DNA of 16,707 nucleotides from a virus (IMGVR_UViG_2547132418_000023), one strand, 5' to 3'; numbered from the stretch's first letter, positions 1 through 16,707 are shown. Notes: a model not told the origin generated them from the letters alone. A program made the numbers and translations.

Positions 1-765
1 ATGCGCGAAAGGGTATCGCAGCAGTTAAAAGAAATTGAACGGCGGTATGATGTGAAAGTATTGTACGCCTGTGAATCAGGGAGTCGCGGTTGGGGATTTG
101 CCTCGCCCGACAGCGACTACGATGTACGGTTTTTGTATGTTCACCCGCTGGAATGGTATCTGCGAGTAGAGTCACCGCGCGATGTTATCGAGCTGCCCAT
201 CGATGACGAGTTAGATGTTTCCGGTTGGGAGTGGCGTAAGGCGCTGGGATTATTGAAAGGCGCGAACCCGACGCTGATAGAATGGCTGGATTCTCCGGTG
301 GTCTATCAACAAGATGAAGAAACGATAACGGCGCTTAAGGCAATGGTCCCAACGTGGTTTTCTCCGCTGCGTGCGCGCTGGCATTACTATTCGATGGCGC
401 AGAAAAACTTCCGCGGATATTTGCAGGGCGATGAAGTTCGACTGAAAAAATACTTTTACGTGCTGCGCCCGCTGCTGGCCGTTCGTTGGGTTGAAGCGGG
501 AAAAGGTGTACCGCCAATGCGTTTTTCCGAATTGCTGGCGGGAAGTGAGTTGGATGCGGCATTACGCGCAGAAATAGATGAATTGCTGGAGCGTAAACAG
601 CGTGCGGGTGAAGCGGAATATGGACTGCGCCGTCCTTTGTTACATGCGTTTATTCGTGCGGAACTGGCGCGCGGGGAAATTCCTCCGCTGTTACCAGACA
701 GCCGGGAAGGGGACGTTAAAGAACTGGATAGTTTACTGTACCAGACGGTAATGCGCCGGGCGTGA
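1..765 (+). CDS. Nucleotidyltransferase-fold protein (Pol-beta superfamily), 254 aa; 5' end coincides with the window edge so the true start may lie upstream
   Basis: ATG at position 1, TGA at 763-765. N-terminal motif GSRGWGFASPDSDYDV fits the nucleotidyltransferase signature hG[GS]-x(9-13)-DhD. Convergent to the tail operon. Confidence 0.6.
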   Translation: MRERVSQQLKEIERRYDVKVLYACESGSRGWGFASPDSDYDVRFLYVHPLEWYLRVESPRDVIELPIDDELDVSGWEWRKALGLLKGANPTLIEWLDSPVVYQQDEETITALKAMVPTWFSPLRARWHYYSMAQKNFRGYLQGDEVRLKKYFYVLRPLLAVRWVEAGKGVPPMRFSELLAGSELDAALRAEIDELLERKQRAGEAEYGLRRPLLHAFIRAELARGEIPPLLPDSREGDVKELDSLLYQTVMRRA

Positions 766-14933: not shown

Positions 14934-15539
14934 TTAGTGAAGACAGCTTGCCTGTCCCCAGAGTAAATAGCGGGCAGCGTGTTGATAGAGAATCATCTTT
15001 GGATAGCGACGATTTTCTCGCCAGTTCGCGGCGCTGCGCCCGGCGTTGACTTGCTCGACATGACCAAACCAGCGAGTGGCATCTAACCCTTTGGATGCAG
15101 CCAGTTTTTTATCCCGGTTAACCCACCCCTGACCGCCGTTATAGGCGCTTAGGGTAAACGCCATACGCTGACAGTCATTTTGCGCAGAGATGTTTTTCCA
15201 CAAATGCTGGTCATATTGCACCAGCGCGCGAATCGCCCAGGTTGGGTTATACGGTTTGTTTTCACGCAATTGTGGATACAACTGGCTTATCCATGTCGCA
15301 GTAGCAGGCATAAATTGCGCCATACCTTGTGCGCCAACGGGGGAACGTACCATTGGCTGCCAGGCGGACTCCTGGTGTAATTGCCCGGCAAAGTCGGCCA
15401 CTGGGGCATTCAGCCCCCAGACTTCTCGAGCTGTACGAATTAGTTCGTTTCGCCATGCCAGAGAGGCTCGCGGCGGTTCAGAGGCGTTAAGCGGGAAAAG
15501 AACGAAAATAATCATAGACGCGATATATTTCAGCCACAT
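14934..15539 (-). CDS. Endolysin candidate: lytic transglycosylase (SLT-like) with N-terminal signal/SAR sequence, about 201 aa
   Basis: The ORF-track start at 15617 is TTG; ATG at 15537-15539 (MWLKYIASMIIFVLFPLNAS...) lies 2 nt after the holin-like stop with AGGG upstream. HQESAWQP has the catalytic Glu-Ser context; GAQGMAQFMP and AYNGG are SLT-like. Confidence 0.7.
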   Translation of the reverse strand: MWLKYIASMIIFVLFPLNASEPPRASLAWRNELIRTAREVWGLNAPVADFAGQLHQESAWQPMVRSPVGAQGMAQFMPATATWISQLYPQLRENKPYNPTWAIRALVQYDQHLWKNISAQNDCQRMAFTLSAYNGGQGWVNRDKKLAASKGLDATRWFGHVEQVNAGRSAANWRENRRYPKMILYQHAARYLLWGQASCLH

Positions 15540-15541
15540 CA

Positions 15542-15829
15542 CTATAGCCCTAAGGCGACGGAAAGACAGACGGCGGCAACGATGATGGCGCGGCGAATCA
15601 TTGCCGCCGCGCAGCAACGCGGTTCCTTCCAGGGGCTAAAAGAGTCAGGCCGTGCCCAGGGGAACAAACTGCGATCGAGCCAGTATCCCAGAACCGCGGA
15701 AAGCGAAACCAGGCTTAGTTTATAAATGACGACCGGGATCTGTGCTGAAGAGGTCCAGCCGATCACGACAAACAGCGCGACGGAAGCGACCAGCCAGCCG
15801 GAAAGCCGGGGAAAAGTGACTTTTTTCAT
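15542..15829 (-). CDS. Holin-like small membrane protein, 95 aa
   Basis: ATG at 15827-15829 with AGGAG 7 nt upstream. Two to three predicted TM helices (WLVASVALFVVIGW, LSLVSLSAVLGYWL, AIIVAAVCLSVALGL). Immediately precedes the endolysin. Confidence 0.55.
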   Translation of the reverse strand: MKKVTFPRLSGWLVASVALFVVIGWTSSAQIPVVIYKLSLVSLSAVLGYWLDRSLFPWARPDSFSPWKEPRCCAAAMIRRAIIVAAVCLSVALGL

Positions 15830-16125
15830 ACGATATCTCCTGATAAGTGAGCGTTTAGTGTCGTCAGAACCCGCCAGTGAAGAATGAAAAAAGCTTTAAT
15901 AAATAAGTTTAAAAAATAGATTCTCTATAAATGAACATGCCCGCTAATAAATCGACTCAGCAATTAAAGAGCAAACGGTGACCTGGCGAATAAGCGCGTC
16001 ATTATGCAGGGAAAAGATGATGGTGGATCGTAGGAATAGTCGATAGTTATTTGATTTTTAAAGTTTGTTTAAGAAAGTCAGCGACTGTGAGGGAAACGAT
16101 CTTTTTACACTACAGGTAAAAATAA

Positions 16126-16145
16126 TACTGTATGTGCATACAGTA
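16126..16145. promoter_or_regulatory. LexA (SOS) box
   Basis: TACTGTATGTGCATACAGTA is a 20-bp palindrome with CTGT-N8-ACAG, one mismatch from the E. coli recA operator as I recall it (TACTGTATGAGCATACAGTA). It lies in the divergent control region. Confidence 0.7.
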
Positions 16146-16166
16146 TCGTGTAAAATGATACTCCTG

Positions 16167-16197
16167 TTGACAAGAAACATAACACAAACAATATATT
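16167..16197 (+). promoter_or_regulatory. Candidate sigma70 promoter for the Mor/C-like gene
   Basis: Perfect -35 TTGACA (16167-16172) and TATATT (16192-16197), but with a long 19-bp spacer. About 170 nt upstream of the ATG. Confidence 0.35.
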
Positions 16198-16365
16198 TAT
16201 TTAGTGAATTTATGCGTACATTAATATTAAGAATTTATATTTCTGGTGATTGTTTATTTGTTTGTTGAATGTATTGAGTAGCAGTAATGACAACTGCTTA
16301 GCGTATATCCGTGGTTTTACACGCATCGGGTCTTATTCAGGATGCAAGATATATGGAGATGAAAA

Positions 16366-16707
16366 ATGATACGAAAATCAAAAGAGATGGCCCGGACACC
16401 GGAGATCATTAACGACCTGGCTTTTCATGCATCGCAAGTTCTGATTGAAAGCATCAATCTCGACAGTTCATCGGCAGAAAATGTGGGTTTTGCCATTGCC
16501 GACCGAATGATGCGTAACTGGGGCGGACAAAGCATTTATTTCCCTAAGGGGATCTCCGGACGAGCATCGGAGCGTGACTACCAAATCTATAGCGAGTGCG
16601 ATGGGCGCAACTACGCCGAATTAGCGAAGAAATATAATCTGACGCTGCAATGGATTTATAAGATAGTCAAACGTGTACATACGGAGAAGCAGCAGAGTCG
16701 TATGTAG
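16366..16707 (+). CDS. Mor/C-family transcriptional activator (Mu middle/late activator-like), 113 aa
   Basis: ATG at 16366 with GGAG upstream, TAG at 16705-16707. GGQSIYFPKG...DYQIYSECDGRNYAELAKKYNLTLQWIYKIVKR parallels Mu Mor (GGGQVYIPRG...DLRIWNDFNGRNVSELTTRYGVTFNTVYKAIRR). Confidence 0.8.
   Translation: MIRKSKEMARTPEIINDLAFHASQVLIESINLDSSSAENVGFAIADRMMRNWGGQSIYFPKGISGRASERDYQIYSECDGRNYAELAKKYNLTLQWIYKIVKRVHTEKQQSRM

Follow-up and report, generated by a model that had tools for sequence, protein, structure and literature searches.

A high-quality candidate LexA operator lies between the two divergent transcription units of a putative R-type tailocin cluster that is found in E. coli, Salmonella and other genera, i.e. 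between the lysis/tail operon and the gene of a Mor-family activator. The cluster was analysed in a stretch of 16,707 nucleotides from a virus (IMGVR_UViG_2547132418_000023), here called the window, and positions refer to it unless another locus is named. The site, its score and its conservation, as well as the genes of the cluster and the protein family to which the activator belongs, can be read directly from the sequences. It is quite likely, as predicted from these data, that LexA binds the site and makes the cluster damage-inducible. Our preferred reading is that one LexA operator serves divergent promoters that overlap and puts the tailocin under SOS control, mor being the key target, and on balance we lean towards it. 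Taken singly, repression of mor by LexA appears reasonably probable and repression of the leftward promoter has slightly better than an even chance, while we rather doubt that both are repressed.

The control region is 100% identical to the chromosomes of 44-48 complete E. coli genomes, and of the 5,426 complete genomes of this species 197 (3.6%) carry the cluster. In strain S10 the RefSeq annotation of the identical locus gives it as a 17-kb insertion between yjbD and lysC. The leftward genes encode a holin, an SLT lytic transglycosylase (confirmed by Pfam), a membrane protein, Gp37, sheath, tube and chaperone, followed by tape measure, U/X/D, baseplate V/W/J/I, fibre and fibre-assembly genes, and this operon extends to about position 780. 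The holin gene, which is the first of the operon, is at 15542-15829 on the minus strand (PF13272, E 4e-27; RefSeq). There is only one gene rightward from the control region, i.e. that of the Mor/C-family activator (16366-16707, plus strand; ribosome-binding GGAG at 16356-16359). The Pfam match of the activator (PF08765, E 2e-37) spans residues 10-112, the domain has the C-terminal helix-turn-helix of the Mor/C family, and the segment LAKKY..LQWIYKIVKRV is kept down to relatives at 42-47% identity. The earlier note had placed the box between a holin/lysis/tail operon and a Mor-like gene, and the Pfam matches bear this out.

No head, terminase, replication, integrase or repressor genes are annotated in the identical S10 locus, and there are no packaging genes either. 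A contractile-tail set together with a lysis cassette at a fixed chromosomal site is the hallmark of R-type tailocins, and by gene content the cluster, known here from its genes, appears to be one of them. The sheath is 71-75% and Mor 44-48% identical to proteins of BcepMu-like transposable phages, where the Mor relatives are annotated as late or middle activators. In these phages the early operon ends with mor, which follows gemA, and the holin and SLT genes open the late operon. The window is therefore a domesticated tail-only derivative of a BcepMu-like phage, in which mor has been moved back-to-back with the late operon. No published description of the cluster was found in the literature search; the 'ST131 tailocin' of PMC9205054 was set aside as a different locus, since it is a P2-like prophage at another genomic site, and a kosakonicin review gave no regulatory detail. 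The left end of the island (window 1-765; locus L001 3210-5134; locus L018 1-2122) carries slipin (Band_7) and RlaP nucleotidyltransferase genes, and L018 additionally has an RtcB RNA ligase gene there. These are RNA-repair or defence-like genes that accompany the tail cluster.

The LexA (SOS) box, TACTGTATGTGCATACAGTA, is at 16126-16145 with the core CTGT-N8-ACAG at 16128-16143, and it is the sole perfect match to this core in the 16.7-kb window. One-mismatch matches are at chance level in the whole window (4 versus 4.3 expected), and the full 20-mer was not matched with three or fewer mismatches in any of 200 shuffles. The earlier note had described the box as near-consensus and one base away from the recA operator. 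This is confirmed by the published operator, TACTGTATGAGCATACAGTA (PMC3009722 Table 4), from which the window box differs only at position 10 (A to T). The LexA consensus used in the field, TACTGTATATATATACAGTA (PMC8072944), is matched at 17 of 20 positions by the window box and at 16 of 20 by recA, and both the outer palindrome (9+9) and the core of the box are perfect.

The heterology index (HI) of Berg and von Hippel was calculated from the 18 E. coli boxes of PMC3009722, or from 17 when recA was left out. Scoring with a LexA matrix had been proposed as a check in the earlier note, and it gives 4.5 with all 18 boxes and 6.0 with the symmetrised matrix that leaves out recA. Both values are inside the range of accepted sites (leave-one-out HI of the 18 published sites 0.6-12.8, or 2.0-17.0 with the symmetrised matrix), and they are beyond chance. 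In the leave-one-out comparison the box ranks about 6th of 19, ahead of recA, lexA and sulA; the second-best site in the window is intragenic and has an HI of 12.35. When the AT-rich intergenic region (536 bp) was simulated 3,000 times with a first-order Markov model, the best HI was 7.94 (median 18.9), i.e. none of the simulations reached the score of the window box. In other words, the palindrome looks like a genuine LexA operator, an ordinary candidate of high quality. The box and the hexamers ACGATA, TATTAT and TTGACA, which are discussed below, are all at the positions where they had been reported before.

Homologous clusters adjoin lysC in Phytobacter, Superficieibacter, Enterobacter and Salmonella, so that the same chromosomal site is occupied in five genera, and they also occur in metagenome and virome contigs. 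The Salmonella cluster is STM4213-STM4219, where STM4213 encodes the sheath, STM4218 the holin and STM4219 Mor. A box is found at the equivalent place in 28 loci from E. coli, Salmonella, Phytobacter, Superficieibacter and metagenomes, representing 19 distinct 64-mers and 14 distinct 20-mers. It is conspicuous that CTGTAT and ACAG are invariant in all 14 box variants, while the centre varies (ATGTGCAT, ATGCACAT, ATATGCAT, ATATACAT, ATATGTAT, ATATAAAC, ATGTAAAA and others) and the outer flanks diverge until they are nearly unalignable. The HI values of all variants (0.9-7.3) fall among those of proven sites. The majority E. coli allele, TACTGTATATGTATACAGTA (135 genomes), matches the consensus at 19 of 20 positions and has an HI of 2.7; the box of S. 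Infantis is AACTGTATATATATACAGTA, with an HI of 0.9.

Such a footprint would be expected of LexA, and of nothing else that the analysis could name. The fact that the LexA positions are fixed while the surrounding DNA diverges argues for ongoing selection. The SOS wiring suggested in the earlier note is still the reading that fits best, since 28 loci of at least four genera keep the box with a LexA-specific pattern. No LexA box was found upstream of mor in Pasteurellaceae and Mu-like relatives (7 genomes and 29 viral contigs; Mor 44-45% identity), which were dropped as an informative comparison since they are a different kind of element.

Candidate promoters overlap the box on both strands, in agreement with the earlier statement that either direction of repression is possible. 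The leftward candidate, aimed at the holin/lysis/tail operon, consists of the -35 TTTACA (16154-16149, minus strand) and, after 16 bp, the -10 TACAGT (16132-16127), which is the left half of the box. This pair was detected by a consensus scan, has a sigma-70 matrix score of 8.3-9.2, and is the only positionally conserved strong sigma-70 match in the 14 loci scanned. The box fills its spacer and -10 in a recA-like geometry, and 16 of the 19 distinct box-bearing variants have both hexamers. We note that TACAGT/TACTGT is supplied by any LexA box, so only TTTACA is independent evidence. In locus L020 the -10 is TACAGC, i.e. the key last T is lost, and in loci L033-L035 TTTACA is lost and there is no leftward promoter match, with a good box kept. 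In E. coli there is no terminator-like site between this candidate and the holin gene. The box is about 300 bp from the holin start codon, which is long for SOS genes.

The earlier note had pointed to another leftward pair with a recA-like layout, ACGATA (16149-16144)-16-TATTAT (16127-16122), spanning 16122-16149 on the minus strand. The hexamers are present in this allele, but their conservation is limited to the E. coli alleles: the position of TATTAT is TAATTT in Phytobacter, TCTTTT in Superficieibacter and TTAATT in the Salmonella-type loci. The conserved candidate TTTACA-16-TACAGT sits 5 bp upstream of this pair.

Two variable bases after the box there is an invariant flank, GTGTAAAATG (16148-16157), that holds TAAAAT on the plus strand and TTTACA on the minus strand. 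Nine bases of it, GTGTAAAAT, are identical in 17 of the 19 distinct box-bearing variants. This invariance exceeds the needs of a -35 element and so agrees with a dual role, i.e. minus-strand -35 and plus-strand -10. TAAAAT (16151-16156) is a 5/6 match to a plus-strand -10 and begins 5 bp past the box; the corresponding -35 position is the invariant CTGTAT, which matches at 2/6 only, and the promoter score is about 6. Under such a promoter the box would span about -37 to -18. Loci L033-L035 no longer have GTGTAAAAT to the right of the box, and they have a rightward candidate, GTGATT-17-TATATT, with its -10 inside the box; since they have no leftward match and keep only rightward candidates, only rightward control makes sense there. 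A conserved 5' hairpin after TAAAAT, which would have been a mark of rightward transcription, was found in the Salmonella-type lineage only (z about -3.3) and is absent in the others. The ATG in GTGTAAAATG was rejected as the start of a conserved small ORF, as L016 and L036 lack it and the encoded peptides show no relationship.

The top plus-strand score in this allele (11.5) belongs to TTGACA (16167-16172)-19-TATATT (16192-16197), downstream of the box. The perfect TTGACA 21 bp past the box, to which the earlier note had drawn attention, is real here, but it is allele-specific and needs a 19-bp spacer to reach TATATT. At this position the majority allele of E. coli has TTGATA and a further one TTGGCA, the hexamer is unrecognisable in other genera, and the -10 TATATT is conserved in four lineages. 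A promoter with this TTGACA puts the box at about -58 to -77, a position from which LexA would not block RNA polymerase. For repression of mor by LexA, the invariant TAAAAT would be a more likely route than TTGACA, and it is possible that TATATT belongs to a second, LexA-independent mor promoter. The mor start codon is about 220 bp from the box, a distance that is likewise long for SOS genes.

Several other elements of the very AT-rich control region (24-28% GC) are conserved. The block TTGATTTTTAAAGTTTGTTTAA-N22-AACGATC (16051-16101), upstream of the box in the plus sense, occurs in lineages with and without the box. No other non-coding element here is conserved as widely as this block, which contains the dyad TTAAA-N5-TTTAA. 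The variable inverted repeats within N22 were considered as covariation and rejected, as stems of 3-5 bp are at chance level in AT-rich DNA. A perfect 10-bp inverted repeat (15820-15829 and 15884-15893) has only partial equivalents in other genera; here the leader CUUUUUUCAU could pair with the holin start region AUGAAAAAAG, hiding the start codon. On the other side, the last ~110 bp of the mor leader (16250-16365) are conserved in all lineages, boxless ones included, with the pattern TGAATGTATTG ... GCACC..TTT ... GGTGCA..ATATGGAGAT. This conservation suggests a regulated leader; an Rfam scan of 15400-16707 at E<=1 returned no RNA families.

A motif close to the holin gene, GCTTTAATAAATAAGTTTAAAAAATAGATTC (15893-15923; ATTTTTTAAACTTATTTATTAAAGC on the minus strand, in which it is read), is conserved in nearly all lineages. 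It lies 65-95 bp upstream of the holin start codon and includes a -10 candidate, TAAACT (15911-15906), that takes the form TAAA(C/G)T across lineages, and a conserved -35 is absent. Mor-type promoters have a -10 and no -35 (PMC4390567), and we tentatively propose the motif as a Mor-dependent late promoter. Promoters of the Mor/C type were defined as -35-less promoters activated through a 16-bp dyad centred at -43.5. A 5-6-5 dyad spaced as in Mu was sought for every candidate -10 without a convincing match, and neither a comparison with the PhiKM late promoter (CTTAA-CGCGCT-TTAAA) nor a motif search in Mu-like Pasteurellaceae prophages gave a convincing Mor site.

We infer LexA binding, the two promoters, the direction of repression and the target of Mor as parts of the following scheme. 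The LexA operator would form the core of back-to-back candidates, i.e. TTTACA-16-TACAGT leftward and TAAAAT rightward, toward mor. Bound LexA would cover the -10 and the spacer of the leftward promoter and the -35/spacer region of the rightward one. Upon DNA damage, RecA-stimulated cleavage of LexA would free the region and Mor would be made. Through the conserved promoter-like motif that precedes the holin gene, Mor would switch on the lysis/tail operon, and cells remaining in SOS would build tails and then lyse. A tail-only cluster that has a holin and an SLT lysin and no repressor gene needs a host repressor. Furthermore, an activator of a lysis operon must be held off, which favours control of mor, as in the PrtR/PrtN system; RdgA/RdgB is likewise a precedent for control of the activator gene. 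Against this reading, the rightward TAAAAT promoter is weak and both start codons are distant from the box. An extended form, which we regard as rather speculative, is a coherent feed-forward (AND-like) circuit, composed of a host repressor and an activator taken over from a phage, in which one LexA dimer would hold both mor and a distal lysis/tail promoter, with a Mor-dependent promoter proximal to the holin gene. If this were true, the lethal burst would occur only in cells whose SOS lasts until Mor accumulates.

The operator is not the same in all lineages. Four intact clusters of the Enterobacter type have no box (the best HI there is >16), therefore LexA control is not universal in the family; these loci are ~20 bp shorter at the box position. 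In L018, which has lost its tail genes, the box position is occupied by an unrelated perfect palindrome, TGCTTTTATAAAAGCA (L018 3757-3775), and the Salmonella Stanley-type loci, which have lost everything left of mor, have TTTGC-TAT-GCAAA there. As judged from such comparisons, the operator has been swapped, gained or lost repeatedly among related lineages.

The boxless loci L014/L015 (E. hormaechei), L037, L041 and L042 have a perfect or near-perfect minus-strand TATAAT at the box position. The IMG/VR contigs L033-L035 have a differently placed box, ATCTGTATATTTA(C/T)ACAGCA, with an HI of 5.8-7.3 (about 2715-2780 in locus coordinates). The sequence TAAAATGG is 7 bp to its left, and the 33-bp segment holding both is flanked by a 10-bp direct repeat, TTAATGTGAT, which suggests that LexA control was gained independently or rearranged in these contigs. 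At the lysC-side site, only mor remains in the Stanley-type loci L012/L013, beside a hexapeptide-repeat gene, and only the holin, SLT, membrane protein and mor genes remain in L018. These decay products suggest an old insertion with lineage-specific erosion.

Insertion sequences provide natural knock-outs of the operator. The region is interrupted in about 11 of the 197 E. coli genomes that carry the cluster, and two of these were examined in detail. AR_0013 (NZ_CP032204.1, L072) has an ISEc53 with a ClbS/DfsB passenger gene and the target duplication ATGTACAT, and CREC-544 (NZ_CP024826.1, L073) has an ISKox3 with the target duplication ATGTGTAT. Both elements are of the ISL3 family and are inserted, in opposite orientations, at the exact centre of the box (16132-16139), and both target duplications are the 8-bp spacer of CTGT-N8-ACAG. 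The half-boxes that result have an HI of 21.8, therefore the operator is destroyed, and the leftward -35 is also torn from its -10. As a side remark, the centres of LexA boxes may be a preferred ISL3 target. The viability of these strains argues that simple loss of LexA binding does not unleash lysis, and this is hard to square with a strong mor promoter held purely by LexA. The viability would fit a situation where the leftward promoter matters and is broken by the insertion; it would also fit a rightward promoter that needs upstream DNA as well, for instance the block at 16051-16101.

A published data set provides a lead on the response of mor. STM14_5073 of S. Typhimurium 14028 is a 348-nt plus-strand gene (4451529-4451876), about 11 kb before malE (PMC8072944 Dataset S1), and since its length and position match those of STM4219, it is presumed to be the Mor homologue. 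With nalidixic acid it rises 4.1-fold in RNA-seq (TPM 49 to 205), and none of the neighbouring genes STM14_505x-507x, those for holin and tail included, are listed as changed (PMC8072944). The gene is not among the LexA-box genes of that study, and the same data set has many large non-SOS changes (PMC8072944). Either strain 14028 is without the box or the box screen missed it. The rise of STM14_5073 is thus a weak lead for SOS control of mor.

The most serious alternative, though we consider it unlikely, is that LexA represses only the leftward promoter. The lysis/tail operon would then be under direct SOS control, like the colicin operons and recA, while mor would be expressed from TTGAYA-19-TATATT or regulated post-transcriptionally through its ~200-nt leader, and Mor would only boost or time late expression. 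This would account for TTTACA-16-TACAGT being the best and the only positionally conserved sigma-70 match, with the box in its spacer and -10 as in recA. It agrees with the lack of a terminator-like site before the holin gene in E. coli and with the conservation, in four lineages, of a TATATT -10 downstream of the box. The ISL3 insertions would silence the operon by splitting its -35 from its -10, which would explain the viability of these strains. However, a lethal activator gene would be left without a known brake, and a single operator of recA strength would be leaky on a lysis operon. Moreover, L033-L035 keep a good box without a leftward match, the -10 of L020 is TACAGC, and in the Salmonella data set it is the presumed mor that goes up while the holin and tail genes are unlisted.

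It is improbable that LexA binds with little present consequence, i.e. that the cluster is a decaying or silenced (e.g. by H-NS) relic that has inherited its box. The region has the very high AT content noted above, there are remnants with mor only or with lysis genes only, in some carriers the sheath gene is frameshifted or the box contains an IS, and the cluster is found in only a small fraction of complete E. coli genomes. Nevertheless, most carriers have all genes intact, and the LexA-specific positions are kept across genera amid diverged DNA, which argues for ongoing selection. It is very improbable that the palindrome serves a different dimeric regulator, or that it is no more than a structural palindrome or a site favoured by ISL3 elements: the palindromes of L018 and of the Stanley-type loci show that operators can be swapped here, and two ISL3 elements picked the box centre, but the positions that never vary coincide exactly with the bases contacted by LexA (CTGT/ACAG), around a free centre, all 14 variants score like proven LexA sites, and the cluster has no other regulator gene.

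Our preferred reading, a LexA operator common to divergent promoters with mor as key target, can be compared with known systems. The recA operator/promoter is similar in sequence: the 20-mers are one base apart and in both cases the box fills the -35/-10 spacer (GATA-CTGT...ACAG-TATAA in recA). The differences are that the exact hexamers are specific to the E. coli alleles here, with the conserved pair shifted by 5 bp, and that the downstream gene starts at about 300 bp, as opposed to about 60 bp in recA. The divergent uvrA/ssb pair has one LexA box common to both units (PMC8072944). The likeness is that a single operator is between divergent units and one repressor dimer can affect both; however, uvrA and ssb are two parallel repair genes, whereas here an activator gene faces the lethal operon that it probably activates, making the pair a candidate feed-forward circuit.

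In the R/F-pyocins of P. aeruginosa (PrtR/PrtN), SOS relieves the repression of a small activator of lysis and tail genes, as proposed here. Pyocins, however, encode a cleavable cI/LexA-like repressor of their own (PrtR), whereas here there is none and host LexA appears to act directly. RdgA/RdgB of Pectobacterium control an analogous SOS-triggered tailocin, RdgA being its own cleavable repressor and RdgB a Mor-like protein. Phage homologues of the Mor protein described here are labelled 'RdgB' by database annotators. The colicin operons, i.e. lethal, lysis-coupled bacteriocin operons directly repressed by LexA, resemble the leftward reading. Colicin promoters have two overlapping LexA boxes just past the -10 and are not known to have a dedicated activator. 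Mu (Mor/C) and the BcepMu-like phages share the Mor-family activator with the cluster, and the BcepMu-like phages also have similar tail and lysis genes and the late start with holin and SLT. In the BcepMu-like phages mor is under a phage repressor, after gemA, whereas here a lone mor is behind a host LexA box and the head, transposition and repressor genes are absent.

The operator is ordinary and the parts are familiar; it is the combination of wiring and evolutionary turnover that appears to be new. The literature search found no earlier description of a tailocin with host LexA acting directly at its control region, next to a Mor-family activator. The SOS-triggered tailocins that have been studied carry their own cleavable repressor, whereas here this job has seemingly been passed to host LexA. 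If this is true, a lysis-coupled weapon joins the accessory LexA regulon of E. coli and Salmonella, and quinolones and other SOS inducers would trigger tail release and lysis in the carriers, i.e. in ~4% of E. coli. The locus would also offer a compact cascade from LexA to Mor to the late operon, whose natural operator variants and IS knock-outs could be used to study the silencing of lethal modules. If the feed-forward reading is true, the series of lineages in which the operator was gained, lost or swapped would be a natural system for the rewiring of a domesticated phage weapon.
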